Source: Elephas maximus (taxonomy: Eukaryota). From it: 64,000 nucleotides of DNA. The stretch spans positions 46,247,680 to 46,311,679 of the forward strand of contig NC_064841.1 of assembly GCF_024166365.1 (NCBI RefSeq). The letters run 5' to 3'. The notes below the pieces were generated by a model. That model was not told where the DNA came from, did not search any database, and saw only the letters and a list, made by a program, of their open reading frames with translations. The stretch's first letter is position 1, and every line of letters starts with the position of its first letter. Of the stretch, positions 2,641 through 54,332 are shown piece after piece. The translations under genes and the position numbers were made by a program.

Positions 2641-2966
2641 TGCTGATGTCAATTCTTTATTTCACCAGTTTGTCTAGTTAAAGTAGGACCAACCAACCAG
2701 CTTCTTTGTACTTCTCATTATGACAAAACTGTAGAAAGGTATCACACATGTATTCACCCAGATCCCTGGCTTTCACCAATACCTGATCTATTGGTGGTGA
2801 TATTTTGTGTATTTGTATTGCCACCTCATGCCATGGATTAGCAGTGCCTTCTTTACTACTGGAGGCAGAGTCATCATCTTTAAGACTAACTGAATTTGAG
2901 AACCAATTTGGAAAAGTCATCCTTACAATTTGTTTCCTTAGAACAACTCTTGGTACCAAATGTCTT

Positions 2967-3600
2967 AGGCTGGTTTCCCTAGAGAAGCAAAACCAGTAAA
3001 GCATATAAATATGTATAGAGAAAGATTTATATCAAGGAAATGGCTCCCCTAGTAGTAGAGGCTGGAAGGTCCCAAGTCCATGAATCAGAATAGAAGCTTC
3101 TCCTTATTCACGTAGCTGCAGGGGCTGGTGAAGCCAAGAGGGGAAGGTCAGAAAACAGGGCTCTTGTTCACAGGCTATGAAGACTGACAAATTCCAGGAT
3201 GAGCAGGAAAGACAACAAGGTTTCTTTTGATTTATGTAGCTGCAGGGGCTGGTGAACCCAAGATCAGCAGATGAGAGAGCAGGGCTGGTGCTCATAGGCT
3301 ATGAAGATTGACAAATCCCAAGGTTGGCAGGAAGACTGTAGGTAAGCTGCTAGCTCAAGTCTCAAGAACAGAAGACAGATGAACAGGAGCCAGCTGCAGA
3401 ATCCAGTGCTGGCAAAAGCAAGAATGTCCTCTTATATTAGGATGCAGGCACACGCCAAAGAAAACTCCCTTTCAACTGATTGGCTACTCACAACAGATTC
3501 TATCATAGCAGTGATCACATATCAAATCTCAACATGGAAGCAATCACAACATTATGAGACTACCAAAAACACTGAGAATCATGGCCCAGCCAAGCTGACA
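2967..3600 (+). repeat. Unclassified interspersed repeat R (begins TGTCTTAGG), containing an internal ~105-bp tandem duplication (3108-3215 / 3236-3335)
   Basis: A second partial copy in the same orientation lies at 5762-5855. The internal duplication reads GTAGCTGCAGGGGCTGGTGAA(G/C)CCAAG...GGCTATGAAGA(C/T)TGACAAAT(T/C)CCA. It ends GGCCCAGCCAAGCTGACACACAA directly before the hexamer array. The family could not be named from sequence alone. Confidence 0.4.
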
Positions 3601-4612
3601 CACAATCTTAACCAACACACTAACCCTATTGCTAATTCTAGCAATAGCTGTTGTGCTAATTCTAACCCTACTCCTAATCCCATTGTGCAACCCTAACCCT
3701 ATTTCTAATGAAAAAATTAACCAAAACCCTTTCATTAACCTCAATCCTAAACTCAACCCCAAACATAAACTTAAACCTAGCTTTAATCATAAAAAAATAA
3801 CCATAACTATAATCCTAATCTGAGCCATAACCTTATATCTAACCCTAACATGAATCCTAACCCTGTGTGTCACCCAAATCCTATCCATAACCCTAAACCT
3901 AACCCTACACCTACCCATAAACATAACCATAACCCTCACCCTAACACTCAGCCTATCCCTACCTTAAATAACAATAACACAAGCCCAAATTCTATGTTTA
4001 ACTCTAAATCAAGTTATAACCATAACTCGAGCCCTAATTCAAAGTTTAACATGAGTCCTAACACTATTCCTAACATTAACCCTAAAACAAGCCCTAAACT
4101 TATGTTTAACCCTAGCCTGAGCGTTAACTCTAACCCTAGTCCTAACACTAACCCTGACATTAAGCCTAACAAGCAGCACTAACTCTGCCATGAGCCATAA
4201 CCTTATGTTTACTCCTAACTGGAGCCTTAACCTGAGCCATAAACTTACCTCATTCATAAATATAACCATAACTTCTTTCTTTACTCTAACATCAACTCTA
4301 ACCAGAGCCCTAATCTATGTTTAAACTAAACATTAAGTTTAATGCTTAAAGTTAACTATTACTAAGCATAAACCTAACCTTAACACTAACTCTAACATGA
4401 GCCTGAATACTGTTTAACCATAAATCTAGCCCTAATGATAACATGAACCCTAATTCTAACCTGAGCCTGAGCCCTAACCCTAACTTTTATTTAACCCTAA
4501 TTTGAGCCCTAATGCTAATTTGAGTACTAACCCTAAGCCTAACAGAAGCCCTATGTTTAACTTTAACTGTAGAGCTAACCCTAAGATGAACTCTATGCCT
4601 CCCAATAACACT
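3600..4612. repeat. Degenerate telomere-like hexamer array, (CCCTAA)n-derived on the + strand (= TTAGGG on the - strand)
   Basis: Continuous run of hexamer variants: AACCCTAA, CCTAACCCTAA, CTAATCCTAA, CTAACCATAA, CTAAGCCTAA. The resulting PNPNP-type ORFs are artefacts. Confidence 0.85.
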
Positions 4613-5159
4613 GAGTAAGTGCAAGTAAACTGAGGCACTTGACTAAAGTAAAATGGCTGCTTTAGAGTTTGGGGCCCAACTCCATCTTGTCTTTCTTTTA
4701 ATATATAAAAATTCTTTCACAGGAGCTATCAAGAATTCTTCCTGAAACAATGTATCAGGAAGAAGACCTTGATACTGCCTCTTATCTAGGTCTCCTACGT
4801 AACTACTGGCAAGGAAATTTTCACTTGAGCAAGCTGTTTCTAAGAGAGAGATGTCCTGTAACCTTCCCCACCCTAGCCCCACTTCCAGTAACCTGCCTTG
4901 TATTAATCTAAGTCTGTAATGCCCAATCAAAAAAGCACATCTCAAGTCCTTTGTTCTCACCATTTGAAAGGTCTCCACAGCATTGCCATTTTGGAAACAT
5001 TCGTTCTGTCTGTAAATTTAGACATTTTCCCCAGGCTGGACTGTTATAAAATCAACAATAAATACCACTGCTTTACTAAGCAGAGTAAGTCCTTATTACT
5101 CTTAGACAACTCAAGCAATGAACCTAAATCAAGCTTTAGCCATGTGAGTAAACAATATC
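4613..5159. other. 547-bp non-repetitive segment splitting the telomere-like array
   Basis: The hexamer periodicity stops at ~4612 (CTGAGTAAGTGCAAGTAAACTG) and resumes at ~5160 (CTAGCCTAACCAAACCCACATCCTAATCCTAACC). No TE hallmark is recognisable in between. Confidence 0.5.
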
Positions 5160-5758
5160 CTAGCCTAACCAAACCCACATCCTAATCCTAACCTGAGCTC
5201 TAATGCTAACCCTAACATTAATCCTAAACATAACTCTACCCCAACCACAATTCTAACCTTAAGCCTAACCCTAACCATAACACTAAACCTAAACACAACC
5301 CCAACCTCACTCCTAGTCATATAATAAAGCCCAGACCTAATCATAACCATAATTTTTACCCCAGCTATAAACATAAAGTTAAACCTAACTGAAATAAACA
5401 CTACCCTTAACATAAGATTTAACCCATGTTTAAACCTAAACCCTTAAATCTAACCTGAGCCCTAACCTCATACCTAATCATGACCATAACCATGAACAAA
5501 AACCTAGCCCCAGTACTAAACATAAACTTAACACTAATCCTCACACTAATCCTAAAGTGAACCTGAATCCTATGTTAAACCTTCATATGGTCCTAAACTT
5601 AACCTGAGGCATATCCCCAGCTCTAACCCTAACCTGAGCCATAGCCTCACCCATCCGTAACAGTACTCCTAAGCCAAAGCCTAGTCCTAATAAAAAAAAA
5701 AACCAAAATGAGTTTATAACCATAATCCTAGCCATAACATTACCTTGAGCACTGTCTT
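5160..5758. repeat. Degenerate telomere-like hexamer array (continuation)
   Basis: Same C-rich hexamer family as 3600-4612, ending near ...ACCATAATCCTAGCCATAACATTACC. Confidence 0.85.
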
Positions 5759-5761
5759 AGG

Positions 5762-5855
5762 CCCTTAGAAGCAAAACCAGTTTCAGCTATAAATATATAT
5801 ACAGACAGAGAAATTTATATAAATGAAATGGGTCACACAGTTGTAGAGGCTGCAG
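5762..5855 (+). repeat. Second, partial copy of repeat R (first ~95 bp), same orientation as 2967-3075
   Basis: TGTCTTAGGCCCTTAGAAGCAAAACCAGT...ATAAATATATATACAGACAGAGAAATTTATATAAATGAAATGGGTCACACAGTTGTAGAGGCTGC is ~75% identical to 2967-3075. It is truncated where satellite A begins. Confidence 0.45.
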
Positions 5856-8600
5856 TTTGCAAAGGCAAAGTTACCGGATATATTCCACGAAAGAGAACCC
5901 AAAATAAAGTTTCTTCCTTTCTACTTGATTATGTCAGAGGGTTTGATTAAGTCAGAGGGTTTATTTCTCTTATTGAAAAACGTGCACCCTAATGTTGCCT
6001 CTGCAGTCTCTTAGTTGGAAAAGAATGTGAAATTATTCCCATTCAAATACATGCAAACACTTGTGTGTTATAGGTTTTCATTATGCACTTTGTTTTACTA
6101 GTGCATGAATGTGCATTAACAATCTCTTAATGAGAACACAATACCGTTTCTCCTGTGCAAGAACAGGGGCTATAGCAATGTGGTTTTACTGAGTAAACCT
6201 TGTGTTTGCAAGAGGCAGTTATCAAATTCATTGCACGAAAGAGAAACCAAAATAGAGTTTCTCTCATTCTACTTGCTTAAGTCAGAGGATTTAAGTCTGA
6301 GGTTTTTTTTCTCTTATTGAAAAACATGCAAACTAAAGTTGGCCCTGCAGTCTCTCAGTTGGAAAAGGATGGAAAGTTACTCCCATTCAAATACACACAG
6401 ACACTGGGTTTTATAGGTTTTCATATTATATGCACTTTGCTTTACCTGGGGATGAATGTGGATTAACGATCTCTTAATGAGAACACAATGCAATTGTTCC
6501 TGTGCAAAAACAAGTGATGTAGTTTTGCTCAGTAAACTTTGTGTTTGCAAGGGACAAACTTATCAAATTCATTGCATGAAAAAGAAGCCAAAATACATTT
6601 TATCTCATTCTACTTGATTAAGCCAGAGGATTTGATCAAGTCAGAGGGTTTTCTCTCTTACTGAGAAACAGACAAGCTAATGTCATCTCTGCAGTCTCTT
6701 ACTTGGAAAAGAATGTAAAGTTACTCCAACTTAAAGTTGCAGTGTTACTCCCATTCAAATACTAGCAGACATTTAGGTTTTATAGGTTTTCTATACACAC
6801 TTTGTCTTACCTGGGTGTGAACGTGCATTAACAATCCCTTAACAAGAACATAATAACGTTTCTTCTGTCCATTAACAGTGGTTATTGCGATGTAGTTTTG
6901 CTGAGTAAACGTTGTGTTTGCAAAAGCCAAAGTTACCTAATTCATTGCATGAAAGAGAAATCAAAATAGAGTTTATCTCATTCCACTGGATATCAGAGGG
7001 TTTGATTACTTCAGAGGGTTTTTTTCTCTTATTGAAAAACATGCAAGCTAATGTTGCCTCTGCAGACTCTTGGTTGGAAAAGACAGTAAAGCTACTCCCA
7101 TTAAAATATACGCAGACACTTAGCTTTGACAGGTTTCCTATATGCACTGTTTTACCTCCGAGTGAATGTGAACTAACAATCTATTTATGAGAACACAATG
7201 AACTTTTCCTGTGCATAAACACTCCCTATAGAGATGTAGTTTTACTGAGGAAATCTTTGTTGCAAGAGGCAGAGTTCCCAAAATCATTGCGTGAAAGTGA
7301 AACCAAAATACAGTTTATCTCATTCTACTTGATTAAGCCAGAGGATTTGATCAAGTCAGAGGGTTTTCTCTCCTACTGAGAAACAGACAAGCTAATGTCG
7401 CCTCTGCAGTCTCTTAGTTGGAAAAGAGTGTAAAGTTACTCCAGCAGACACTTAGGTTTTACAGTTTTTCTATATGCACCTTGTTTTACCTGGGCGTGAA
7501 TGTGCATTAACCATCTGTTAACAAGAACACAATGACGGTTTTCCTGAGCATAAACAGCAGCTATAGCGATGTAGTTTTGCTAGGTAAACCTTGTGTTTGC
7601 AAGAAGCAAAGTTCCCTAATTCATTGCATGAAAGAGTAACCAAAATGCACTTTCTCTCGTTTTACTTGATTAAGTCGGAGTGTTCGATTAAGTCAGAGGG
7701 TTTTTCTCTTACTGAAAATCATGAAAGATAAAGTTGCCTCTGCCTTCTTTTAGTTGGAAGAGAATGTAAAGTTATTCCTACCAAAATACTTACAGAAATG
7801 TAGTTTTCATAGGTTTTCTATATGTACTTTATGCTTACCTTGGAGTAATGTGCATTAACAATCTCTTAACAGGAACAAAATTACATTTTTCCTGTGTATT
7901 AACAGTGCCTGTAAAGATATAGTTTTGCTGAGTAAACCTTATGCTTGCAGGAGGCAAAGTTTCCAAATTCAATGCATGAAAAGAGTAACCAAAATACAGT
8001 TTCTTTTGTTATACTTCATTAAGTCAGAGTGTTTGATTAAGGCTTTTTTCTCTTACTGAAAATCATAAAACATAAAGTTATCTCTGCCTTCTCTTAGTTG
8101 CAAGAGAATGTCAAGTTACTCCTATTCAAATACGTACAGACACTTGGGTTTTACAGGTTTTCAGTATGTACTTTCTCTTATCCAGGCGTGAAGGCACATT
8201 AACAATCTCTTAATGAGATCACTAAGCAGTTTGTGCTGTGCAGGAACAGCGCTAGCTATCGCTATGTAGTTTTGCTGAGTAAACCTTGTATTTTCCAGAG
8301 GCAAAGTTACCAAGTTCACTGCATGAGAGAAACCAAAACACTTTCGCTCATTCTACTTAAGTCAGAGGTCTTGATCAAGTCAGAGGTTTTTCTCTCTTAT
8401 TGAAGAACATGCAGGGTAATTTTGCCTCTGCAGGAACTTAGTTGGATAAGAATGTAAAGTTCCTCCCATTCAAATACGAGCAGACACGTAGGTTTTATAG
8501 GTTTTTTATGTACACTTTGTTTTCACTGGGCGTGAAGGTGCATTAGGAATCTCTTAACAAGAATAGTCAGAGAGTTCTTTCTTTCACCGAGAAACATGCA
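5855..8600. repeat. Satellite A, domain S1: ~345-bp units (three diverged ~115-bp sub-monomers), ~8 units
   Basis: The marker AAACATGCAAGCTAATGTTGCCTCTGCAGTCTCTTAGTTGGAAAAGAATG recurs at ~5975, 6320, 6670, 7030, 7390, 7720, 8070 and 8400. Within the unit, GTTTCTCTCATTC, GTTACTCCCATTC and CAGTTTTTCCTGTGC segments lie ~115 bp apart. Confidence 0.85.
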
Positions 8601-11600
8601 AGCTGATGTTGCCTCTGAGCTCTCTTATTTGGAAAAGAGTGTGTAGTTACACACTTTGAGCTGTCGAAAGGCACTTGGATTGGTTAGGATTTCACCATGC
8701 ACTTTGTTTTCCCTGGGCAACAGTGTACATTCACAATCTCTTAACGCTAACACTGTGAATTTGCTCCTTGCCAGCATAGCGCTATGGCGATGTAGATTTT
8801 CAAAGAAACCTTGCATTTCCAAGAGCAAATTACCGACTTCATTGCAGGAAAGAGAAAAGAGAAGACAGTGTCTCTCATACATCCTTACTTTTGTCAAAGG
8901 ACTGGATGAAGTCAGGGAGATCTTTCTATCACTGAGAAATATGCCAGCTGATGTTGCCTCTGAGCTCTCTTATTTGGAAAAGAGTGTGTAGTTACACATT
9001 CTGAACTGTGGAAAGACACTTGGGTTGGTTATGATTTCACCATGCACTTTGTTTCCCCTGGGCAACAATGTGCTCTCACAAGCACTTAACGCTAACACTA
9101 CGGACTTGTTCCTCCTCAAAGAACACGGCTACCACAGTGTAGTTTTCCTGAGGAAAGCTTCATTTGCAGGGCCAAATTTGCCGAGCTCATTGTAGGAAAG
9201 AGAAACGAAATGACGGTTTTCTCATTCTGACTGATTTTGTCAGAAGGCTGGATGAATTCGAGAATTATTTCTTTTACCGAGAAGCACGCAAGCTGATGTT
9301 GCTCTGAGCTCTGTTCTTTGGAAATAATGTAAACTGACATGCAATAAACTGAGGAAGGACACGAGTTTGCTAGGATTTCACTATGCACTGTGTTTCCCCT
9401 AGGCGTCAGTGTGCTCTCAGGATCTCTTAACGGTAACAATATGTACTTTTTTCCTACAGGAAGAGATGTTACTGGTTTGTACTTTGGCCTAGGAAACCTT
9501 GCTTCTGCAAGTGCAAAGTTAAAAGAGTTTCTGCAGGAAAGAGAATACAAAAGGCCGTTTTCTCCCTTGGCATCAGTGAGCTTTCACAATCTCTTAACGC
9601 TAACTCTATAAAGTTGCTCCTCTGCAAGCATAGCACTATGGAGATGTAGATTTTCAAAGAAACCTTGCATTTGCAAGAACAAACTACTGAGATCATTGCA
9701 GGAAAAAGAAAAAAGAAGACAGTTTCTCTCATACACCCTTCCTTATCTCAGAGGACTGAATGAAGTCAGGGAGTTCTTTCTTTCACTGAGAAACATGCAA
9801 GCTAATGTTGCCTCTGAGCTCTCTTATTTGAAGATAAGTGTGGCATTACACACTTTGAACTGTGGAAAGACACTTGGGTTGGTTTGGATTTCACCATGCA
9901 GTTTGTTTCCCCTGGGCAAGAACATGCATTCACAATCTCTTAAGGCTAACACTATGTAGTTGCTTGTCTACAAGGTTAGTGCTACCGCAATGTAGTTTCT
10001 CAGAAGAAACCTTGCATTCGCAAGAGCAAATTACCGAGCTCATTGCAGGAAAAAGAAAACAAAAGACAGTTTCTCTCATACTGCCTCCTTTTATCAGAAG
10101 ACGGGATGGGGTCAAGGAGCTCTTTCTCTTGCTGAGAAACATGCAAGCTGATGTTGCCTCTGAGCTCTCTTATTTGGAAAATATTGTGTAGTTACACACT
10201 TTGAACTGTGGAAAGACACTTCTTTGGTTAGGATTTCACCGTGCACTTTGTTTCCTCTGGGTGGCAGCAACGTGCTTTCACAACCATTTAACACTAACAC
10301 TATGAACTTGTTCCTCTTCAAAGAACACGGCTACTGCAGTGTAGATTTCCCGAGGAAACCTTGCGTTTGCAAGTGCCAAATTTGCTGAGTTCATTGTAGG
10401 AAAGAGAAACTAAATGACGGTTTTCTCATTCTGACTGGTTTCGACAGAAGACTGGACAAATTCAGAGAGTTCTTTCTTTCACTGAGAAACATCCAAGCTG
10501 ATGTTGCCTCTGCTCTGTTCTTTGGAAATAACGTAAAACTGGGGAAAGACACGGGTTTCCTAGGATTTCACTATGCACTGTGTTTTCCCTGGGCATCAGT
10601 GTGCTCTCAGGATTTCTTAACGGTAACAATATGTAGTTGTTTCTCTGCAGGAAGAGATGTTACTGGTTTGTAGTTTGGCCTAGGAAACCTTGCTTTTGCA
10701 AGTGCGAAGTTACCGAGTTCCTTCAGGAAAGAACACAAAACATGGTTCTAACCCTGGGCGTCAGTGTGCTTTCACAATGTCTTAACGCTAACACTTGAAG
10801 TTGCTCCTTGTAAGCACAGCATTACGGCGATTTAGATTTTCAAAGAAACCTTGCGTTTGCAAGAGCAAATTACCGACTTCACTGCAGTAAAGAGAAAAGA
10901 GAAGACAGTTTCTCTCATATAGCCTTGCTTTTCTCAGAGGACTGGATGAAGACAGGGAGATCTTTGTATCACTGAGAAATATGCAAGCTGATGTTGCCTC
11001 TGAGCTCTTTTATTTGGAAAAGAGTATGAAGTTACACACTTTGAACTGTAGAAAGACACAGGTTGGCTAGGATTTCACCATGCATTTTGTTTCCCCTGGG
11101 CAACAACGTGTTTCACAAGTTCTTAACACTAACACTACGGACTTGTTCCTCTTCAAAGAACAGGGCTATCGCAGTGTAGTTTTCCAGAGAAAAGCTTATG
11201 CTTGCAAGGGCCAAAATTGCAAAGCTCATTGCAGGAAATTGAAACCAAAAAATGGTTTCCAATTCTGACTGCTCCATCAGAGGACTGGACGAACTCAGAG
11301 AGTCTTTTCTTTCACAGAGAAACATGCAAGCAGAATTTTCCTCTGACCTCTGTTCTTTGGAAATAACATAAATTGTCATGATTAAACTATTGAAAGACAC
11401 AGGTTTGCTAGGATTTCACTATGCACAGGGTTTTCCTTGGGCACCTGTGTGTTCTCAGGATATCTTAACGCTAACACTACATAGTTGTTTTTCCACAGGA
11501 AGAGATGTGACTGGTTTGTAGTTTGGCCTAGGAAATCTTGCTTCTTCAAGTACAAAGTTAAAGAGTTCCTGCAGGAAAGAGAATATAAAAGGCCGTTTTC

Positions 11601-14600
11601 TCCCTGGGCATAAGTGTGCTTTCACAATCTCTTAACGCTAGCTTCTCTGCAAGCATAGTGCTACGGAGATGTAGATTTTCAAAGAAACCTTGCATTTGCA
11701 AGAGCAAATTATTGAGATCATTGCAGGAAAGAGAAAAGAGGAGACAGTTTCTCTCTTACAGTCTTGCTTTTCTCAGAGGACTGAATGAAGTCAGGGAGTT
11801 CTTTCTTTCACTGAGAAACATGCAAGCTAATGTTGCCTCTGAGCTCTCTTATTTGGAGACGAGTGTGGCATTCCACACTTTGAACTGTGGAAAGACACTT
11901 GGGTTGGTTAGGATTTCACCATGCACTTTGTTTCCCGTGGGCAACAAAGAGCTTTCACAACCACTTAACACTAACACTACGGGCTTGTTCCTCCAAATAA
12001 CACAGCTACCGCAGTGCAGTTTTCCTGAGGAAACCTTGCGTTTGCAAGGGCCAAATTTGCTGAGCTCACTGGAGGAAAGAGAAACTAAACGATGGTTTTC
12101 TCCTTCTGACTGGTTTCGTCAGAAGACTGGATGAAGTCAGAGTTATTTCTATCACTAAGAAACATGGAAGCTGATGTTGCCTCTGCTCTGTTCTTTGGAA
12201 ATAATGTAAATTGACATGCATTAAACTGCGGAAGGACACGGGTTTTGTAGGATTTCACTATGCACTGTGTTTTCCCTGGGCGTCAGTGTGCTCTAAGGAT
12301 TTCTTAACGGTTACAATATGTAGTTGTTTCTCTGCAGGAAGAGATGTTATTGGTTTGTCGTTTGGCCTAGGAAACCCTGCTTTTACAAGTGTAAAGTTAC
12401 CAAGTTCCTTCAGGAAAGAGAATACAAAAGGCGGTTTTCTCCCTGGGCATCACCGTGCTTTCAGAATCTCTTAACGCTAACACTATGAAGTTGCTCCTTG
12501 CAAGCATAGCTCTACGGCGGTGTAGTTTTTCATGGAAACCTTACATTTGAAAGAGCAAATTCCCAACTTCATTGCAGAAAAGAGAAAGAAGAAGACAGTT
12601 TCTCTCATACAGCCTTGCTTTTCTCAGAGCACTGGATGATGTCAGGGACATCTATCACTGAGAAATATGCAAGCTGATGTTGCCTCTGAGCTCTCTTCTT
12701 TGGAAATAACATAAATTGACATGCCTTAAACTGGGGAAGTACACGGGTTTCCCAGGATTTCTCTATGCACTGTGTTTTCCCTGGACATCAGTGTTCTCTC
12801 AGGATCTCTTAACGGTAACAATACGTAGTTGTTACTCCACAGGAAGAGATGTTACTGGGTTGTTGTTTGGCCTAGGAAACCTTGTGTGCAAGTGCAAAGT
12901 TACGAGTTCATGTAGGAAAGAGAGAGAATACAAAAGAACATTTTCTCTCTGGGTGTCAGTGTGCTTTCACAATCTCTTAACGCTAACACTGTGTAGTTGT
13001 TCCTCTTGAAGGATGGTGCTACGGCGATGTAGAATTTCAAAGAAGCCGTGCGTTTGCAAGAGCAAATTACCGACTTCATTGCAGGAAAGAGAAAAGAGAA
13101 GACAGTTTCTCTCATACGGCCTTGCTTTTCTCAGAGGACTGAATGAAGTCAGGGAGTTCTTTCTTTCACTGAGAAACAAGCAAGTTGATGTTGCCTCTGA
13201 GCTCTCTTATTTGGAGATGCGTGTGGCATTCCACACTTTGAACTGTGGAAGGATACCCGGGTTAGTTAGGATTTCACCATGCACTTTGTTTCCCCTGGGC
13301 AACAACGTGCTTTCACAACCACTAACACTACGGACTTGTTCCTCTTTAAAGAATATGGCTACTGCAGTGTAGTTTTCCTGAGGAAACCTTGCATTTCTGA
13401 GGGCCAAATTTCCTGAGCTCTTTGTAGGAAAGAGAAACCAAACAACAGTTTCTCATTCTGACTGCTTTCATCAGAGGACTGAACGAATTGAGAGAGTTCT
13501 TTCTTTCACTGAGAAACATGCAAGCTGATGTTTCCTCTGAGCTGTGTTCTTTGGAAGCAATGTAAATTATCACGCAGTAAACTACTGAAAGACACGGGTT
13601 TGAGTGGATTTCACTATGCACTGTATTTTCCCTGAGTGTCAACGTGCTCTCAAGATCTCTTCACAGTAACAATACGTACTTGTTTCTCTGCAGGGAGAGA
13701 TGTTACTGGTTTCTAGTTTGGCCTAGGAAACCTTGCATTGCAAGTGCAAAGTTACCGAGTTCCTGTGGGAAAGAATACAAAAGACCATTTTCTCCCTGGG
13801 TGTCAGTGTGCTTTCGCAATCTCTTAAGGCTAACACTCTGTAGTTCCTCTGGAAGGATAGTGCTATGGCGATGTAGATTTTCAGAGAAACCTTGCATTTG
13901 CAAGAGCAAATTACCAAGATCACTGCAGGGAAAAGAGAAGACAGTTTCTCTCATACTGCCTCCTTTTCTCAGAGCACTGAGTGAAGTCAGGGAGTTCTTT
14001 CTTTCCCTGAGAAACATGCAAGCTGATGTTGCCTCTGCTCTGTTCTTTGAAAATCACACAAATTGTCATGCATTAAACTGCTGAAAGACAAGGGTTTGCT
14101 AAGATTTTGCTATGCATCTTGTTTTCCCTGGGCATCTGTGTGCTCTCAGGATATCTTAATGGTACCACTACATAGTTGTTTCTCTGCAGGGACAGATATG
14201 ATGGCTTTGTAGTTTGGCCTAGGAAACCTTGCTTCTGCAAGTGCAAAGTTAAAGAGTTCCTGCAGCTAAGAGAATACAAAAGGCCGTTTTCTCCCTGGGC
14301 ATCAGTGTGCTTTCACAATCTCTTAACGCTAACTCTATAAAGTTGCTCCTACATAAGCATACCACTAAGGCGATGTAGATTTTCAAAGAAGCCTTGTGTT
14401 TGCAAGAGCAAATTACCGACTTCATTGCAGGAAAGAGAAAAGAGAAGACAGTTTCTCTCATACAGCCTTGCTTTTCTCAGAGGACTGAATGATGTCAGGG
14501 AGTTCTTTCTTTCACTGAGAAACATGCAAGTTGATGTTGCCTCTGAGCTCTCTTATTTGGAGACGAGCGTGCCTTTCCACACTTTGAACTGTGGAAAGAC

Positions 14601-16600
14601 ACTGGGTTGCTTAGGATGTCACCATGCACTTTGTTTCCCCTGGGCAACAACGTGCTTTCACAACCACTTAACGCTAACACTACGGACTTGTTCCTCTTCA
14701 AATAACACAGCTACCACAGTGTAGTTTTCCTGAGGAAACCTTGCATTTGCAATGGACAATTTTGCCGAGCTCATTGTGGGCAAGAGAAACCAAACAACGG
14801 TTTTCTCATTCTGACTGGTTTCCACAGATGACTGGACGAATTCTGAGAGTTCTTTCTTTCATTGAGAAACATGCAAGCCGATGTTGCCTCCGAGCTCTCT
14901 TCTTTGGAAATAATGTAAATTTACATGCCTTCAACTGGGGAAGTACACAGGTTTCCTAGGATTTCTCTATGTACTGTGTTTTCCCTGGGCGTCAGTGTTC
15001 TCTCAGGATCTAATGGTAACAATAGGTAGTTGTTACTCCACAGGAAGAGATGTTACTGGTTTGTAGTTTGGCCTAGGAAACCTTGCATTGCAAGTGCAAA
15101 GTTACTGAGTTCATGTAAGGAAGAGAATACAAAAGACCGTTTTCTCCCTCGGTGTCAGTGTGCTTTCACAATCTCTTAAGGCTAACACTGTGTAGTTCCT
15201 CTGGAAGGATAATGCTACCATGATGTAGATTTTCAAAGAAGCCTTGCATTTGCAAGAGCAAGATACCCAGATCACTGCGGGGAAGAGAAAAGACAGTTTC
15301 TCTCATACTGCCTCCTTTCCTCAGAGGACTAGATGAAGTCAGGGAGTTCTTTCTTCAACTGAGCAATATGCAAGCTGATGTTGCCTCTGAGCTCTCTTTT
15401 TTGGAAAAGAGTATGAAGATACACACCTTGAAGTGTGGAAAGACACTTGGGTAACTTAGGATTTCACTATGCACTTTAGTTTCCCTGGGCAAAAATGTGC
15501 TTTCACAATCTCTTTTCCTTAACACTACATTCATGTTCCTCTTTAAAAAACAGGGCTACCGCAGTGTAGTTTTCCTGTGGAAAGTTTGCGTTTGCAAGGG
15601 CCATATTTGCTGAGCTTATTGTAGAAAGAGAAACCAAACAACTGTTTCCCATTCTGACTGCTTTCGTCAGAGGACTGGACGAAGTCAGAGTTCTTTCTTT
15701 CACTGAGAAACATGCAAGCTGGTGTTTTCTCTGAGCTCTGTTCTTTGCAAGTAATGTAAGTTGTCACACATTAAACTACTGTAAGACACGGGTTTGCTTG
15801 GATTTCACTATGCACTGTGTTTTCCCTGGGGTGTCAATGTGCTCTCAGGGTCTCTTAACGGTAACAATACGTAGTTGTTTCTCTGCAGGGAGAGATGTTA
15901 TTGCTTTGTAGTTTGGCCTAGGAAACCTTTCTTTTGCAAGTGCAAAGTTACTGAGTTCCTGCAGGAAACAGAATACAAAAGACCCTTTTCTCCTTGGGCT
16001 TCAGTGTGCTTTCACAATCTCTTAGCACCAACACTGTTTCCTTGCAAGGGTAGCGCCACCGTGTTGCCATTTTTCGGAAGAAACCTTGCTTTTGCAAGAG
16101 CAAATTACCTAGTTCATTGCAGGAAAGAGAAAAGAAAGTTTCTCTCATACTGCCTGCTTTTCTCAGAGGACTGGATAAAGTCAAGGAGTTCTTTTTTTCA
16201 CTGAGAAACATGCAAGCTTGTTGCCTCTGAGCTCTTTTATTTGGAAAAGAGTGTGTAGTTACACACTTTGACCTGTGGATAGACATCTGGGTTGTTTAGG
16301 ATTTCACCATGCACTTTGTTTTCCCTGAGTGACAACGTCCTTTCACAAGCTCTTAATGCTAACACTACAGATTTGTTCCTCTTCAAAGAACACGGCTACT
16401 GCCGTGTAGTTTTCCTGAGGAAACTTTGGGTTTTCAAAGGCCACATTTGCCAAGCTCTTTGTAGGAAAGAGAAACCAAATGAGAGTTTCCCATTCTGACT
16501 GCTTTCATCAGAGGACTGGATGAAGCCAGAGAGTTCTTTCTTTCACTGAGAAACATGCAAGCTGATGTTGCCTCTGAGCTCTGTTCTTTGTAAATAACAT
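8600..16600. repeat. Satellite A, domain S2: ~845-bp higher-order repeat (~2.5 x 345 bp), ~9.5 units
   Basis: The marker (C/T)ATTAAACTG(C/G)GGAAGGACACGGGTTTGCTAGGATTTCACTATGCACTG recurs at 9348, 10540, 11385, 12222, 12727, 13590, 14075, 14930, 15775 and 16610. Spacings are mostly 835-863 bp, with deletion variants (485, 505) and one expanded unit (1192). Units 845 bp apart are ~85-92% identical by eye; adjacent sub-units are much more divergent. Confidence 0.8.
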
Positions 16601-18190
16601 AAATTGGCATGTGTTAAATTGGGGAAAGACATGGATTTGCTAGGATCAAATTACAGAGTTCATTGCAGGAAAGAGAAAAGACAATTTCTGTCATACTGCC
16701 TGCTTTTCTCAGAGGACTGGATGCAGTCAGAGAGTTTTTTCTTTTACTGAGAAACATGCAAGCTGATGTGGCCTCTGGGCTCTCTTAATTGAAAATGAAT
16801 GCAAGGTTACATCCATTGGTGTGCAGGGAGATACTTGGGGTGGCTAGGGTTTCAAAATTCAGTTTGTATTCCCTGGCGTCACTGCTTGCTGACAACATCT
16901 TAATGCTAAATCTATGTGTTAGTTCCTTTGCAAGGAGAGCAGCTACCGCGACGTTGTTTTTCTGAGGAAGCCTTGCAGTTGCAAGAACCAAAGTTACCTC
17001 GTTTATTGCAGGAAAAAGTAACCAAAAGACAGATTCCCTTATTCTACCTGCTTTCGTCAGAGGACTGGTTGAAGGCAGAGATTTTTTCTCTTTGTGAGAA
17101 ACATGCAGTTGTTGACTGCGCTCTCTTCCTTAGAAAAGAATGGAAAGTTATACCCTTTGAATAGTGGTTAATGTGCTTTCACAAAATCTTAACATTAACA
17201 CTACATATTTGTTCCTCTGCAAGAACAGGGGCTACCGCGATTCAGTCTTACTGGGGAAACCTTGCTTTTGCAAGAGCCAAAGTTACTGAGCTCTTTGCAG
17301 GAAAGAGAAACCAAAAGGCAGTTTTCCCACTCTCCCTGCTTTCCTCAGAAGACTGGATGAAGTCAGAGTGTTCTTTTGCTGATAAACATGCAAGCAATGT
17401 TGACTTTGCTCTCTCGTATTAGAAAAACAGTGGAAAGTTACCAAGTTTCATGCCAGAAAGAGAAACCAAAGGACAGTTTCTCTCATTCTGCCTGTTTTCA
17501 TTACAGGACTGGATGAAGTCAGAGAGTTTTTTCTCTTACTGAGAAACATGCAAGCTGATGTTGCCTCTGTGCTCTCTTCCTTGGAAAAGAATGGAAAGTT
17601 ACACCTATTGAACAGTGGGCATACATTGGGTTTGCTAGGATTTCTACATGCACATTTTTTTATCGTGGATGTTAAGGTGCTTTCACAAAATCTTAAGGCT
17701 AACTCTATGTTGTGTTCCTCTGCAAGAACAGGGGCTACCATGATGTAGTCTTGCTTAGGAAACCTTGTGTTTCCAAGAGCCAAACTTACCAAGTTTAATG
17801 CCAGAAAGAGAAACCAAAAGACAGTTTTTCTCATTCTGCCTGCTTTCCTCCGAGGACAGGATGAAGTCAGAGAGTTCTTTGTCTTACTTAGAAACATGCA
17901 AGCTGATGTTGCCCCTGTGCTCTCTTCCTTGGAAAAGAATGGAAAGTTACACTCATTGAACTGCAGGCAGACACGGGTTTCAATATGCACATTATTTTGC
18001 TTGGTGTCAATATGTTTTCACAATATCAACGCCGACACTAAGTAGTTGCTCCTCTGCAAGAACAGGGGCTTCCATGATGGAGATTTGCTGAGGAAACCTT
18101 GCATTTGCAAGAGCCAATGTTACCGAGTTCATTGCCAGAAAAAGAAACCAAAAGAGTTTCTCTCATTCTGCCTGCTTTCTTCAGAGGAGT
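16600..18190. repeat. Satellite A, domain S3: divergent ~345-bp units at the array edge
   Basis: Recognisably the same family (GAAACATGCAAGCTGATGTTGCC(T/C)CTGTGCTCTCTTCCTTGGAAAAGAATGGAAAGTTACAC) with ~345-bp spacing (17540, 17885), but not homogenised with S2. Confidence 0.7.
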
Positions 18191-21100
18191 TTTCTTTAGG
18201 CCTCTGAATTACTTCATAAATTTTTGAGAGGTTTTTCTGGTTTTGTACCCCAGTTTAAGGCCTTTTAGAAACTACTTTCTATAATGCCTCAGCCTATTCA
18301 TGCCCTCCTTTGAATAGTAGTCCCACTCTGGATCAATTCCCGGGACTGCATTATCGGCTGGCAATTTGTCAGGATTCTGGGGGTTTTATTGGTCGAACAA
18401 ATTTTCTGTTTACTAAATGCTAATAGAAAAAAGATAAGAGTGGAAAATCTTTTGTGTTCTCTTTGATTGGCTTTATATGAAAAGTTCTTTAAAAGAATTT
18501 TCAGGATTTTCTCATCTATTGTCTTTATCTCAGGGCTCAGTCAATGTTTCTTTCTGAGTCCTTGTGAGTCCTTGTTATCCCAGCTCCAGCTAGGTTACAT
18601 TTTCTATGCTCAAGGACAGGGAACACATCGATGATCAATACCTGGACTTTGTTGAGCTCCTAGATGGCAGCCATTTCAGGCTCTTTAAACTGATGGTGCT
18701 GGCCTTCCTCCGGATACCATCTGGTTCTTCACCAGGGTCTTGTAAGAGCAAAGTTCTCATCAATTGCAGACTTAGTGTACATCAACATTTTAGCCCTATG
18801 CTTCTCTTTTGCCTTTTAAATATGTAAGACAATAGAGGATAAATTTTATTATGTCTAATACTATCAGGACTATCCCTTGCAGTAGTGACCTAGCTCATGT
18901 ACTTATTCTTGATAGTAACCAACTCAATAAATCTGGTGTTTGTAAGGGTGTTACATTGTATAACCAAGTAGCTTGTTGTCTAATTCTATGTGTTCTACTT
19001 TACTTGTGTTATTTAACAAGAGGTATTTGTTACAGCAGAGACTACACTTTTCTTGGACCAATAAATAAAAATCTAAGGCTATTCTGTTATGTCATGTCAT
19101 CTTGGCTTAATGAGGCCAGAGATCACTGTGGTGTTTTCACCCCACTAGCAACTTAGTCTGTTATTTATCCCATAGTGATTGATAAATTTCTTAAAGATTT
19201 CTCCAACTCAAATATACTATTTTACAATGGGTAACAAATTTAACATGACCTTTCTAATATTTACCATGGATATCTAAAGAAAATCTTAAAGTTCCCAAAG
19301 TGTACTGTCTATGTATTTATCAGGAATTTAAACAAGAATTGTCTTCATAAATTCACTATCAATTGGAAATTAGTATAGGTGAATATATCACATAAAAACG
19401 TATCTAGAAGGAACAAAGCTTGTCCAGAGAGAACAGAAAATATAGAAAAACTTACATATGTCAACTAAGTTTTCATTACAGAATTTATGATTAACAAGAT
19501 AATACAGGATGGACTTCTCATGTTGGAGGTCTCTAGTTAATCTGTCTGAAACTTAGTAAGTGTTCTCCCTGAGGGCAAGCTGCCCCTCCTTGGTTTACCT
19601 ATTAACAGTCATGGGTCAGTTTCTCAGAAGCAGAAGTGGAATCTAAGACGAAATGGAGCCTGACTCAAGAGATCGATCTCTTTGAGAACCTGATTTTCTT
19701 AAGGTACATAATTTTCTGTACAGCAAGGGGGTGAGGGTTTGATTATAAACATTAGACAGGTATTTTATACAATATTGTCTTGCAGACTGATTAAACCAAT
19801 AACTGATTTACCCTAAACATAACTCTTATTTACTGATCTTGGGAATCATTTTCTAAAAACAGACTGAATTCTTTTTAAAAAAAAAACAAAACACAACATT
19901 CAGAGAAAAAAATAATCTTGTTAGTTTATCTGGACAATTGTTTACCTCAAAGTGGCTTCAGGAATCAGTTTTTTTTTTTTTCCTTCAAAATTTGAGGTTC
20001 AAAAGGACATCCAAAGGCAATGGCCTGTGTGGGTTGCCCCAACCTCTATGAAAGCCAGAAATCTGGATTCTGGGAGAATTACATACAACTATCTCACGGT
20101 TTTCTCTTTTGGATCTTGACCTTTTTATAGAATCTTTGATCAAAAATGCTCAATCACTATCTGTTTTTAAGATCTCAGGCACCATACAGCAAATCAGGAG
20201 GTAGGATAGAACACACTAATGTTAGGCCAATTGTTTGAAATAACCAATGAAACCATGATCCAAATGTCTTTGAACCAAGGAAACAAATCTCATGAGGTGT
20301 TTGTACATAAACAGCATCAGTAACTGCTTTTCATGTGCCTCAGCATTCTGCCAAACCTGTTAACTCAAGAGTTACAATATCTAAACCCACTAGTTAGATA
20401 ATTTAGGAGAAGAGGAATATGGTTTCTTATCTCTAGAAAGTAGGACCTTAAAGCATTTCTTATTTCCAGAAAGAAAAACCTTAAAACGTCTGTAATATTC
20501 CCACATAAAACCCATAGCATCATATCATTTACTCAGCCTTATGTAGTTAACTTCTGTTCCATGTGATACTGGGTCAACCACAGTCTGTGAACCCATCAGC
20601 ATTTGCATAAGAATTTTGGAAATTTCTGTTGAGTCTAGTCACACTCCCTTTCATAAGTCCAACATAGCCCATCTTTTTTTGTTGAGCTATTCTGGTCAAA
20701 TGTTTGCAGAAAGTAAAAACTTATCTGTAGATGACAAAACTTAATATGGTCATGATTAATTTATAAACATAATTCCTACTGGTGAAAGACATGATAGAAA
20801 TTAATTACAAGCACAAACAAAGACCAAATAAAATCAGTTAAAAAAAAAGTTTTAGAACCGTATTTTTAAAGAACTTCAGATGTAACACATAATAATCTTC
20901 AGACATAATACCATGTAGTCAGGGTGTATGAAGAATATACCAAGGCCATCAAGTCTCCAAAATACCTGAACAGCAACAATAACTTCATAGGTAAATGATG
21001 TGAATTCTCCAAACTATTGATTTTAATGATGCTAAAAAATCTATAAATACGTTTGCAACCAAGTTAGCAATTAAGATGACATAATATTATGTATTAGTTG

Positions 21101-23824: not shown

Positions 23825-26715
23825 GGGAATCTCTTAACAGCTCTTTTGTTCCACCAACACAGTTCACCCTATCTGTCTCAGTTTTGCTGAGGAAATCTTG
23901 TGTTTGCAAGAGCCAAAGCTACCAAATTCATTTCATGAAAGAGAAACCAAAATACATTTTCTCTCATTCTGCCTGATTGAGTCAGACGATTTGATGAAGT
24001 CAGAAAGCTTTCTCTCTTACTGAAAAACATGCACACTAATGTAGCCTCTGCATTCTCTTAGTTGGAAAAGAATATAAAGTTACACCCATTGAACTCAGGG
24101 CAGACACTTGGGCTTTATAGGATAGCAATATGCACTTTGTTTTACCTTGGAGTGATTGTGCTTTAGCAATCTCTTAACAATAACACTACGAAGTTATGCC
24201 TCTGCAAGTACAGGGGCCACCGCGATGTTCTTTTGCTGAGGAAACAAGAGCCAAAGTTAGTGAATTCATTGCATGAAAGAGAAACCAAAATACAAACTCT
24301 TTCATTCTGTCTGGATCAGTCAGAGGATTTGAGGAAGTCAAAGTCTTTTACTCTTACTGAAAAACATGGAAGCTCATGTTCCTTCTGCATTCTCTTAGTT
24401 ATAAAAGAAAGGAAAGTTACACCCATTGAACAACGTGCAGACACCTGGGCTTTATAGGATTTCAATACACACTCTGATTAATCTGGATGTGAATGTGCTT
24501 TAACAATCTCTTAACGATAATACTACGTAGATATTCCTCTGCAAGTACATGAACTACCGCAATGTAATTTTGCTGAGTAAACCTCCTGTTTGCAAGAGCC
24601 AAAGTTACCGAATTCATTCCATGAAAGAGAAACCAAAATACATTTTTTCTCATTCTGCCTGATTGAGTCAGAAGATTTGATGGTCAGAAAGATTTTATTC
24701 TTACTTAAAAACATGCAAGCTAATGTGGATTCTGAATTTTCATAGTTGGAAAACAATGTATATTTACACTCATTGAACTACGTGCAGACACTTGGGCTTT
24801 ATAGGATATCAATATGCACTTTGTTTTACCTGGGCATGAAATTGCTTTAACAATCTCTTGACAACAACACTACAAAGTTATGCCTCTGCAAGTACAGGGG
24901 CTACTGCGATGTACTTTTGCTGAGGAAACCTTGTGTTTGCAAGAGCCAAAGTTACTGAAGTTATTGCATGAAAGAGAAACCAAAATACAGTTACTCTCAG
25001 TCTGCCTGAATGAGTCAGAGGATTTGAAGAAGTCAGAAAGTTTTTTTCTTACTGAAAAAGTTGCAAGCTCATGTTCCCTCTGCATTCTATTAGTTGTGAA
25101 AGAATGGAAAGTTATACCCATTGAACAAAGTGCAGGCACTTGGGCTTTATCGGATTTCAGTGTGCACTTTGATTAACCTGGATGTGAATGTGCTTTAACA
25201 ATCTCTTTATGATAACACTACGTAGTTATACGTAGGTATTCCTTTGCAAGTACAAGGGCTACCGTGATGTAGTTTTGCTGAGGAAACCTTGTGTTTGCAA
25301 TTGCAAAAGTTACCGAATTCATTGCATGAAAGTGAAATCAAAATACATTTTCTCTCATTCTGCCTGATTGAGTCAGATGATTTGATGAAGTCAGAAAGTT
25401 TTTATTCTTACTTAAAAACATGCCAGCTAATGTAGACTCTGCGTTTTCTTATCTGGAAAAGAACTTAAATTTACACCCATTGAATTACATGCAGACACTT
25501 GGGCTTTATAGGATTTCAATATGTACTTTGTTTACCTGGGTGTGAATGTGCTTTAACAGCCTCTTAATGATACCACTATGTAGTTATTCCTCTGCAAGTA
25601 CAGGGGTTACTGCGGTGTAGTTTTGCTGCATAAACATCATGTTTTCCAGAGGCAAAGTTACTGAGTTCACTTATGAAAGAGAAACCAAAATAGTTTCTCT
25701 GGTTCTACTTAAGTCGAGGAGTTTAAGTCAGACAGATCTCTCTCTCTTATTGAAAAACATGCATGTTAATTTTGCCTCTGCCATCTCTTAGTTGGAAAAG
25801 AATGTAAAGTTACTCCTATTCAGATACGCAAATACACTTGGGTTATAGGTTTCCAATATGCACTTTGTCTTACCTGGGTAAGAACGTACTTTAACAGTCT
25901 CTTAACAAGAACACTGTTCAATTCATCCTATGGAGGAAGAGTGGCTATCGCTATATAGTTTTGCTGAGTAAACTTTGTCTTTGCAGAAGGCAAAGCTTCT
26001 GAATTCACTGCATGAAAGAGAAACCAGAATACAATTTCTCTCATTCTACTGGATAAAGTCAGAGTGTTTTCTCTCTTATTGAAAAACATGCAAGCTAATG
26101 TAGCCTCTGTGGTATCTTAGTCGGATAAGAATGTAAACTTACATCTGTTCATATATGTGCAGACACTTGGGTTTTATAGGTTTTCAAGGTGTACTTCCTT
26201 TTACTTCCTTTTACCCGGGTGTAAATGTATATTAACAGTCTCTTAAAGAGAACACTATGCAGTTTGTCCTGTGCAGAAACTATGGTTTAGCAATGCAGTT
26301 TTGCTAACTAAACCTTGTGTTTGCAAGAGCCAAAGTTACCGAATTCATTGCATGAAAGAGAAAACAAAATAGAGTTTATCTCATTCTACATGGTTATGTC
26401 ACAAGGTTTGATTAAGTCAGAAAGTTTTTACTCTTACTGAATATCGTGAAAGCTAAAGTTGCCTCTCCCTTCTCTTAGCTGGAAAAGAATGTCAAGTTAC
26501 TCCTACTCAAACATGTGCAGACACTTAGGTTTTATAGGTTCTCAATGCCGCTTTGTTTTACCCAGGTGGGAATGTTCTTTAACAATCTCTTAACGAGAAC
26601 ACTATGCAGTTTGTCCTGTGCAGGATCCATGGCTTAGGGATGTAGTTTTGCTGTGTAAACTTTGTGTTTGCAAGAGGCAAAGTTACTGAATTCATTGCAT
26701 GGAAGAGAAACCGAA
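23825..26715. repeat. Satellite A, S1-like ~345-bp units (~8.5 units), second block
   Basis: CATT(G/C)CATGAAAGAGAAACCAAAATACA...TTGGAAAAGAATGTAAAGTTAC(A/T)C...CAATCTCTTAAC periodic at ~345 bp, same orientation as the first block. The array is cut at 26715 by an L1. Confidence 0.85.
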
Positions 26716-32889: not shown

Positions 32890-33908
32890 TTTTTTAATTG
32901 AACTTTAGATGAAGGTTTACAGAACAAACTAGTTTCTCATCAAACAGTACACACATTGTTGTAAGACATTGGCTAACAAACCCACAACTTGTCAACACTC
33001 TCTCTTCTCGACCCTGGTTCACTATTACCTGCTTTCGTGTTCCATCCTGCCTTCCAGTCCATGCCCTAGGGCTGGTGTGCCCCTTTAGTCTTGTTTTGTT
33101 ATATGGGCCTGTTCAATCTTTGGCTGAAGGGTGAACCTCAGGAGTGACCTCATTACAGAGCTGAAAGGTTGTCCAGGAGCCATACGCTCAGGATGTCTCC
33201 AGTCTCTGTCAGGCCAGCAAATCTGGTCTTTCTTTTTGAGTTAGAATTTGGTTCTACATTTTTCTCCAGCTCTGTCAGGGACCCTGTAAGTGGTGGTAGC
33301 TGGGCACCATCTACTTGTACTGGACTCAGTCTGATGGGGTCCACGGTAGATGTGGTCCATTGGTCCTTTGGATTAATCTTTCACTTGTGTCTTTAGTTTT
33401 CTCCATTCTTCCTTGCTCCCGAAGGGATGAGACCAGTGGAATATCCTAGATGGTGGCTCACAGGCTTTTAAGACTCCAGACTACTCACCAAAGTAGAATG
33501 TAGAACATTTTCTTTATAAACTATGTTATGACAGTTGAGCTAGATGTTCCCCAAGACCATGGTCCCCACAGTCCTCAGCCCAGCAAGTCGGTCCCTCAGG
33601 GAGTTTGGATGTGTCTATGTAGCTATCATGACCTTGCCTTGCACAAGTTGTGTTGGCTTCCCCAGTATTGTGCACTGTCTTTCTCTTCACCAAAGTTGCC
33701 ACCTATCTATTGTCTATTTAGAGTTTGTCCATTCAACCCCTCCACAGGGATCCCTGGTAACCATCAAAGATTGTTTCTTTTTTTGTGTAAAACTTTTCAT
33801 GAGTTTTTACAGTAATGGTCTCATAAAATATTTATCCTTTTGTGATTGACTTATTTCACTCAGAATAATGTCCTCCAGATTTATCCATATTATGAGATGC
33901 ATCACAGA

Positions 33909-47700: not shown

Positions 47701-47997
47701 GATAATGTATAAGGAACATTCCCCAGTGTGTAACACAAAGTGTTTTTTGATAACAGGGAAAACATTTGTGACTTTATCTACTTGATTGGGAGAAAGCTTT
47801 CTCTTTCCTGCAATGTGTATGGAATTTTCGTGTCCTTGTAAACCAAGGTTTAAATGGAAAATCTAAATGTCTTTTGCCGTCACGGCCTTGAATGGAAGAA
47901 GCTCTGCATAGTTTGCTCCTTCAGAAAATGTAGTGCCAACCTTCTAGTCCTTATAGCGCCAAGTATAGTTTGAAAACAAATAAAACTGTCCTAAGCT
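41709..47997. repeat. Satellite B: ~115-bp monomers in ~345-bp trimers; ~3.8-kb higher-order repeat, ~1.65 copies; inverted relative to satellite A
   Basis: Monomer: GTAACACAAAGTG(C/T)A(G/C)TTTGAAAACAAGTAAAACTCTGGTGGCTTCA(T/C)GTACTTGAATGGGAGAAACTGTACATTGTTTTCTC(C/A)(T/A)TCAGAGAATGTATAGGGAACATTCCTGTCCAT. Trimer period, e.g. 44478 to 44820, is 342 bp. Long-range markers repeat at 41705/45520, 42705/46502, 43040/46850 and 42960/46790, i.e. every ~3.80-3.83 kb, at ~85-90% identity. Confidence 0.85.
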
Positions 47998-53973: not shown

Positions 53974-54153
53974 TAGAAAACCAGTCAACATAATCCACCA
54001 CATCAATAAAACATAAGAACCACATGACCTTATCAATCAACAGAGAAAAGGCATTTGACAAAATCTAACTCCCATTACAGGTAAAAACTCTTAACAAAAT
54101 AGGAATAGATGGGAAATCCCTTGACATAATAAAGAGTGTCTACACAAAACCAG

Positions 54154-54320: not shown

Positions 54321-54332
54321 ATACAAAACCAG

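Follow-up and report, generated by a model that had tools for sequence, protein, structure and literature searches.

The best described relative of the DNA considered here is TMAsat, the satellite of sirenian (manatee and dugong) centromeres. Fluorescence in situ hybridization (FISH) places it at all manatee centromeres but that of the Y, and two ~340-bp subunits, 55.8% identical, alternate in it to form a higher-order structure (Valeri et al., 2021; PMC8421680). Among other mammals, a divergent homologue is found only in elephants and hyraxes, in short arrays of at most 18 units that are flanked by L1 in 9 of 10 cases in the African elephant and in 15 of 16 in the Asian elephant; these arrays were judged “not a typical satDNA” and possibly L1-related, with centromeric expansion in Sirenia only (PMC8421680). 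In the literature after that paper, no mention of TMAsat in the context of elephant or hyrax arrays was found. The present locus lies in a 64,000-nucleotide stretch of the Elephas maximus genome (NCBI RefSeq assembly GCF_024166365.1, contig NC_064841.1, positions 46,247,680 to 46,311,679 of the forward strand; the whole stretch is called the window, and all positions are counted along it). It holds a tandem array of ~345-bp monomers in which an 8-kb higher-order repeat (HOR) with a unit of ~845 bp is bordered by more divergent monomeric layers. A first-pass annotation had proposed this architecture and had called the family “unrelated”; the layers are genuine, but homology to TMAsat (E=1e-20), taken together with the published L1-flanked elephant arrays, places the family among known ones and among the relatives of a centromeric satellite.

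How far does this homology reach? In a comparison made with nhmmer, the monomer profile of the window matches the TMAsat2 half of the published consensus with E=1.3e-20 and the TMAsat1 half with E=1.7e-11. Local conserved stretches of 49-58 bp show 85% identity (score 51-54; shuffle maximum 25), and the blocks held in common with TMAsat include CATGAAAGAGAAA..CAAAATACAG and ACATGC..GTTGCCT.TGCATT. Global identity of the monomers to TMAsat1/TMAsat2 is ~42-53%, with the highest values in the basal type of the left flank, S1 (see Table 1 for the segments named here). The alternation of TMAsat1 and TMAsat2 is not seen in the window: the monomers fit both halves about equally, and weakly, and the array repeats at 345 and 845 bp instead of the sirenian 687. 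On these matches, the array is assigned to a TMAsat-related ~345-bp satellite family of paenungulates, the group that comprises elephants, hyraxes, and sirenians. The two monomer blocks that are best conserved were sought as exact patterns in metagenome contigs, without a match. Within the monomer, a dyad (AGAGAAAC-N9-GTTTCTCT, model positions ~33-60, for example at 5885-5915) is conserved in the S1 monomers and in those of a second, inverted array called M; it folds as single-stranded DNA (z = -3.5 and -3.95) and is degraded in the monomer types a and b of the HOR (z about -1), and manatee TMAsat1 carries a longer imperfect dyad at the homologous place (z = -3.6).

The ~345-bp family fills positions 5855-18191 of the plus strand, as judged from Tandem Repeats Finder (TRF; period 344-346 bp) and from decomposition with nhmmer. 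The 344-346-bp TRF period spans 5855-10528 and returns at 23880-26712; TRF is blind to periods above 500 bp, so the region was decomposed with an nhmmer monomer profile. The subunits stand head to tail, with TRF periods of 344-347 bp and nhmmer units of 319-363 bp, and the satellite DNA of the TMAsat-related family at this locus totals about 21 kb. Ungapped autocorrelation, blurred by indels, yielded no more than weak peaks at 344, 839, 1346, and 2197 bp, and was replaced by self-BLAST, the nhmmer decomposition, and 10-mer offsets. The last of these settle where the long period lies. Pairs of 10-mers ~845 bp apart occur only in the bins starting at 7855 to 15855 and are abundant between 8.5 and 16.6 kb; the bins at 5855 and 6855 share 0-1 10-mers at this offset, and the offsets of the left flank are 345, 690, and 1035 bp instead of 845. 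The expected restriction of the 845-bp periodicity to the core is thereby confirmed. Pfam found nothing for the open reading frames inside the satellite (11616-12134 and 17448-17990), and Rfam at its gathering threshold found no family, nor was any tRNA found in the satellite.

The core spans 8565-16646, which at 845 bp per unit amounts to 9.6 units, close to the ~9.5 copies first estimated. Its unit is a-b-D, where a and b are two types of 345-bp monomer and D is a ~150-bp element in which model positions 1-61 are joined to 236-339 by a 174-bp internal deletion. Type a monomers start at 8820, 9672, 10020, 10858, 11697, 13055, 14401, 15251, and 16093, and type b monomers at 9165, 10368, 11203, 12043, 13402, 14748, and 15593; the nine D elements start at 9506, 10697, 11544, 12386, 12887, 13739, 14235, 15089, and 15935. 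The resulting D-to-D spacings (1191, 847, 842, 501, 852, 496, 854, and 846 bp) agree with the 835-863 bp reported earlier for a long sequence marker and with its two short variants, here 501 and 496 bp. The marker itself recurs at 9359, 10549, 11397, 12236, 12741, 13592, and 15786, with no occurrence expected by chance. A single long variant of 1192 bp had also been described: the 1191-bp spacing was found, but there are about two such units, since the first unit of the core is also a-a-b-D. A supposed 168-bp sub-repeat (12270 vs 12438) dissolves on inspection into the 3′ part of a b monomer and the 3′ part of the D that follows it.

In a multiple alignment of all full monomers, 40 diagnostic columns tell a from b, and neighbor-joining bootstraps support the a clade at 99% and the b clade at 100%. 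Identity in this alignment is 86.1% within a (range 79-93), 83.1% within b (76-92), and 71.8% between a and b (67-77); pairwise alignment of a with b gives 76.8% and a Kimura two-parameter distance (K2P) of 0.279. The D elements are 82.0% identical to one another (n=9). Pairwise identity among the seven canonical 845-bp units is 86.1% (range 83.6-88.5; 83.1% when gaps are counted), with K2P 0.155. The HOR claim would have fallen with units no more alike than neighboring monomers; at 86.1% against 71.8-76.8%, the units are more alike than a and b are, and the claim stands. The contrast with the surroundings is modest all the same: flank monomers share 78-82%, not the 65-75% anticipated for adjacent monomers. 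Nor is the core homogenized, as had been assumed: its units are ~14% apart and about equidistant, in a flat, star-like distance matrix.

One deletion junction is common to all nine D elements (9/9), and it sits between two GTTTTCYC direct repeats, microhomology at the breakpoints. A shared junction with flanking direct repeats points to a single microhomology-flanked deletion, amplified later with its neighbors. Exchange between monomers has also left its mark. Each of the two ~500-bp units in the core begins with an a/b hybrid monomer: in F12551, 10 of the first 11 diagnostic sites are a-type (one is neither) and the remainder mostly b-type, and in F13899 the first 11 are a-type and those afterwards mostly b-type. 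The change from a-type to b-type sites falls, in both, between columns 101 and 158 of the alignment, an interval that holds a ~52-bp block identical in the a and b consensuses (GAGTTCTTTCTTTCACTGAGAAACATGCAAGCTGATGTTGCCTCTGAGCTCT), their longest such block. The position of the switch within this block argues for an out-of-register homologous exchange that removed one monomer length. The two hybrids pair in just 55% of bootstraps and may stem from one event or from two. The short units, with the unit between them, produce a 1346-bp period and the longest self-alignment of the array, 82.9% over 3 kb. The two ~1190-bp a-a-b-D units were considered as the reciprocal product of the short-unit crossover and rejected as such: their extra monomers are a-type throughout, with no b/a hybrids. 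The first of these units opens with a truncated a-type monomer (8565-8808) that begins at model position 93 and is 86.5% identical to the a consensus; at the other end of the core, 16436-16638 matches the b consensus at 87% identity.

Could the periodicity be a product of assembly, that is, of repeat reads mis-joined or collapsed? Satellites are prone to misassembly, and the core edges are sharp phase breaks, from model position 279 to 93 at 8563/8565 and from 219 to 2 at 16646/16639. Yet the units are 12-16% apart, far above sequencing error, so that each is unique and can be placed unambiguously, and the signatures within them are coherent, from the common deletion junction to the hybrids that switch inside an identical block; an artefact of this kind is scarcely credible.

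Table 1. Array segments, units of the higher-order repeat, and adjoining features, by position in the window
Feature	Position	Strand	Details
Degenerate telomere-like (CCCTAA)n tract	3600..5700	+	Interrupted at ~4600-5150; directly left of the satellite
S1, monomeric array of basal type	5855..8563	+	Seven full and one truncated ~345-bp monomers; ends at model position 279
First HOR unit, 5′-truncated a-a-b-D (long variant)	8565..9662	+	Strong ~1190-bp 10-mer offset
Long variant a-a-b-D (~1190 bp)	9672..10848	+	F9672 and F10020 with a-type sites; F10368 b-type; D 10697-10848
Two canonical a-b-D units	10858..12538 (10858-11687, 11697-12538)	+	nhmmer units, diagnostic-site typing
Short unit, a/b hybrid monomer + D (~500 bp)	12551..13043	+	Diagnostic sites of F12551
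Canonical a-b-D unit	13055..13889	+	nhmmer units, diagnostic sites
Second short unit, a/b hybrid monomer + D	13899..14389	+	Switch interval same as in 12551
Two canonical a-b-D units	14401..16082 (14401-15239, 15251-16082)	+	nhmmer units, diagnostic sites
Last truncated HOR unit, a + b cut at model position ~219	16093..16646	+	Right HOR breakpoint
S3, closest to a, outside the a and b clades	16639..18191	+	Several truncated monomers; ends at model position 87
S4, five monomers, distinct clade	23880..25640	+	Clade support 95.5%; weak dimeric pattern
S5, three basal-type monomers resembling S1	25647..26714	+	Ends against an L1 ORF2 fragment
M array, divergent inverted relative of the satellite	41738..47987	-	nhmmer minus-strand matches; clade support 100%

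Outside the core, the monomers form layers (Table 1). Mutual identity is 78.4% in S1 (5858-8282; 81.8% pairwise, K2P 0.21), 83.5% in S4 (23905-25629; K2P 0.175), and 76.6% in S5 (25647-26658; K2P 0.235), and the monomers of S3 (16639-18191) are 77-85% identical pairwise; with the HOR at K2P 0.155, the distances form a ladder of small steps through S4 and S1 to S5. The monomer tree is comb-like: with the M array as outgroup, it has a basal grade made up of S1 and S5, after which come S4, the pair 17431/17774, monomer 16639, and finally a+b. The nested clades have bootstraps of 85% for a+b, 81% with 16639 added, 100% with 17431/17774, and 100% with S4. To the right of the HOR, the branching order is the physical order (16639, 17431/17774, 23905-25629, 25647-26658), a gradient of age or relatedness; a HOR core with more divergent monomeric flanks is a sound description. 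The outermost layers share one basal type: in the tree, the left flank, S1, falls with S5, the last layer on the right. Identity between S1 and S5 is 76.2%, compared with 76.6% within S5 and 78.4% within S1. S3 and S4 are present on the right only, and the left edge of the HOR abuts S1 directly, at a breakpoint. The layering is real but no more than partly symmetric, a layered expansion in miniature.

Two further patterns were seen in the right-hand layers. In S4 (23905-25629), monomers two apart are 85-88% identical and neighbors 81-83%, and there is a 1391-bp autocorrelation peak. S3 was considered as a second HOR for its 792-bp autocorrelation peak and was dismissed, its monomers being 77-85% identical whatever their spacing.

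These observations are best explained, with a probability of about 0.8, by a small, old HOR in a TMAsat-related locus: non-coding tandem DNA that was shaped by unequal exchange and local tandem duplication and most likely has no function today. The proposed history begins with (i) an ancestral monomeric array of the S1/S5 type, this type being basal in the tree and S1 being nearest to TMAsat, within which (ii) local variants ancestral to S4, then to S3, and then to a and b would have arisen, a succession that the nested clades show. Next, (iii) one monomer lost model positions 62-235 between the GTTTTCYC repeats to give D, as the junction common to all nine copies shows, and (iv) an a-b-D segment would have been amplified to ~9.6 copies, presumably splitting the older array and parting S1 from S5. 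Then (v) out-of-register a × b exchange in the ~52-bp block would have produced the observed hybrids and the ~500-bp units, with other local duplications giving the a-a-b-D pair and the 1346-bp super-unit. Finally, (vi) homogenization would have ceased, leaving the units as they stand today; equidistant units at ~14% divergence suggest a single ancient burst of amplification, with decay ever since. If substitution rates of 1-2.2e-9 per site per year are assumed and CpG effects and gene conversion are ignored, K2P 0.155 would make the HOR tens of millions of years old, roughly 35-80 My.

Several points weigh against this account. The contrast between the core (K2P 0.155) and S4 (0.175) is small. 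The juxtaposition of the HOR with the oldest type on the left could be explained by rearrangement as well as by expansion in place, for the layers are no mirror images and, across the left breakpoint, the oldest type adjoins the HOR with no intermediate layer between them. The age hinges on the substitution rates assumed. Lastly, size, divergence, and context are the only grounds on which the locus is held not to be a centromere.

If the array has the layout of a centromere and relatives that are centromeric, why should it not be one? The first-pass annotation had likened it to primate alpha-satellite centromeres, and the likeness holds for the HOR and the layers; it does not extend to a core of 8 kb that lacks a CENP-B box and stands amid L1 and telomere-like repeats. 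Active human arrays are highly homogeneous over lengths of 340 kb to 5 Mb, and their outer layers consist of divergent HOR and monomeric repeats with 17-26% intra-array divergence, in which L1s are common; these layers are read as decayed ancestral centromeres, and inversions are common in diverged alpha satellite (Altemose et al., 10.1101/2021.07.12.452052). In the window, an 8-kb HOR with ~14% divergence between units is accompanied by flanks at ~18-20%. By analogy, the whole locus resembles dead outer centromere layers rather than a core. A homogenized, kinetochore-bound HOR in an active centromere core would account for the HOR organization with its more divergent flanks and for the centromeric role of the sirenian relatives, but it is very improbable in view of the 8-kb size, the star-like ~14% divergence of the units, the non-satellite, L1, and short interspersed element (SINE) DNA within a few kb, and the motif searches. 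The CENP-B box core NTTCGNNNNANNCGGGN has no perfect match in the 64-kb window, and sites that match it at 7 or more of the 9 positions are no more frequent in the HOR (0.62 per kb) than in non-satellite DNA (0.63 per kb). The centromeric satellite of the African elephant is described as a 936-bp unit with a CENP-B-like motif (Alkan et al., 2011, as cited in later work); the comparison with this satellite covered that motif only, CTTTGCCGAGAACGGAG, which has no match in the window at up to 3 mismatches. Within the monomers, CTTTGTTTTACCTGGGC (model positions ~233-249, for example at 24819-24835 and 26204-26220) matches the CENP-B core at 7/9 positions, and at 8/9 in one S5 monomer; its position is homologous to that of the first “CENP-B-like” motif reported in TMAsat, and in the 7/9 sites both mismatches are C-to-T at would-be CpG sites. 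This likeness may be due to chance, the frequency of such sites being not above background.

A centromere of the past is another matter. The locus could be the fossil of an inactive centromere or pericentromere of the paenungulate ancestor, with the telomere-like repeats at its side marking a former telocentric end or a fusion point. Homology to a satellite found by FISH at all manatee centromeres but the Y would fit this origin, as would the nested layers, the 14% HOR and 18-20% flank divergence with L1-rich flanks, which match human outer layers, the degenerate telomere-like tract directly adjoining the array, and the presence of both array orientations within 40 kb, given the inversions of diverged alpha satellite. 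Valeri et al., however, see the elephant and hyrax arrays as non-typical and possibly L1-related, and the satellite as centromeric only in Sirenia; the array is also without a CENP-B box, and small arrays can become layered by unequal exchange without a kinetochore. A fossil centromere is an unlikely but not negligible reading; it concerns where the array came from and is compatible with unequal exchange as the mechanism. Whatever its origin, the array is most likely a relic, and nothing points to present centromere function.

The telomere-like tract on the left consists of degenerate repeats with TRF periods of 6, 18, and 24 bp (60-77% matches). Its two parts, 3600-4600 and 5150-5700, hold 128 of the 177 CCCTAA-rotation hexamers of the window, with almost none on the G strand. 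It is bracketed by a ~110-bp direct repeat (2965-3075 and 5755-5865, ~80% identical), the right copy of which enters the first monomer; this bracketing suggests insertion or duplication of the whole telomere-like block in one piece.

L1 is abundant elsewhere. According to self-BLAST, L1 copies with 74-81% mutual identity make up most of 26.7-41.7 kb and 50.7-63.8 kb; the minus strand carries ORF1 fragments at 2-373 and 37907-38344 and reverse-transcriptase fragments at 35346-35729 and 32588-32893. The 5′ region of L1 ORF2 follows each array in the array's own orientation, at 26708-27140 on the plus strand and at 41230-41709 on the minus strand. The two array/L1 junctions are not identical, with L1 start points ~190 bp apart in L1 coordinates, and the plus-strand junction carries the microhomology GAGAAACC|GAAGTTGG; their similarity is possibly a coincidence, possibly an old inverted duplication of a satellite-L1 junction. 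Did the satellite, then, arise from L1-linked sequence or spread with it, so that the HOR is just one local expansion? The plus-strand array, which ends at 26714, and the M array, which ends at ~41738, both run into the ORF2 5′ region, the closeness of the two L1 start points fits a common linkage, and L1 flanks were reported for nearly all arrays of both elephants, as cited above. But the monomer profile has no match inside the longer L1 copies of the window, the two junctions differ, the left end of the array meets telomere-like repeats and not L1, and adjacency to L1 is to be expected anyway because L1 fills much of the window. An origin tied to L1 is, on balance, decidedly doubtful, and a relic shaped by unequal exchange is preferred. 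Among the L1 copies themselves, two ORF2 segments on the minus strand (30965-32854 and 33875-35748) are 80% identical and 2.9 kb apart, both with reverse-transcriptase fragments, which indicates tandem or nested L1 copies.

The remainder of the window adds smaller features. The M array has extra internal duplications of ~110-120 bp (model positions ~130-259) and a larger duplication at an offset of ~3.8 kb (41739-43309 vs 45529-47119, ~81% identical, against 70-75% at other offsets). The 5.7-kb spacer between S3 and S4 (18192-23880) has stop-free stretches without a Pfam match, and one SINE is its sole similarity to the rest of the window. The phase of the satellite breaks across this spacer, from model position 87 on its left to ~315 on its right, so that a simple insertion does not explain the spacer. 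A tRNA-derived SINE, which we take to be AfroSINE, has copies at 54144-54511 (a tandem pair), 23322-23476, and 50166-50285; ARAGORN and Rfam made no call at these copies. A GC-rich, 243-codon stop-free stretch at 1788-2516 contains a ~240-bp direct repeat (1931-2258 vs 2170-2473, 76%) and, with a sub-threshold zinc-finger match only, is probably a non-coding repeat.

What does the locus teach? It is no new kind of element, and nothing about how centromeres function can be read from it so far. It is, however, a fully resolved case of a tandem array changing its organization, with one deletion, crossover hybrids, and a phylogeny that mirrors physical order; it links the poorly described non-sirenian “TMAsat-like” arrays to HOR-type evolution and bears on the rise of the sirenian centromeric satellite from a pre-existing library of short arrays. 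Were it a fossil centromere, the TMAsat family would have been centromeric, and evolving by HOR formation and layered growth, prior to the separation of sirenians, elephants, and hyraxes, and elephants would later have swapped in another centromeric satellite, a satellite turnover in Afrotheria that could be dated.

The organization had been presented as a primate-type architecture outside its usual setting, yet HORs are known outside primates (PMC5737470), and layered expansion has already been reported in several non-primate lineages, plants among them. Like the window, Tribolium Tcast1a/1b alternates related, diverged subunits (PMC5737470), and both it and the layered centromeres of plants show occasional homodimer or deletion variants and an origin by unequal recombination; unlike the window, where the family occupies one small locus, the Tribolium and plant satellites are abundant genome-wide. 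With primate alpha satellite, the window shares a multi-monomer unit in tandem, units more alike than monomers, structural variants from unequal exchange, L1 in the outer parts, and nested layers in which divergence rises away from the youngest block. The sequences are unrelated, the monomer is 171 bp in primates and 345 bp here, and the arrays measure 0.3-5 Mb against 8 kb; at 86% identity, the window units are like a decayed “divergent HOR” layer and unlike an active primate core, the symmetry is partial, and a CENP-B box is lacking. TMAsat is the nearest counterpart. It is homologous, its subunits measure ~332-355 bp against ~345 bp here, and it too derives a higher-order organization from diverged subunits; its unit, however, is a 687-bp dimer, and that of the window is an a-b-D trimer with a deleted monomer. 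TMAsat, centromeric by FISH, makes up ~0.9% of the manatee genome, against about 21 kb at this locus. In being short and L1-flanked, the window array is like the TMAsat-like arrays already described in elephants.

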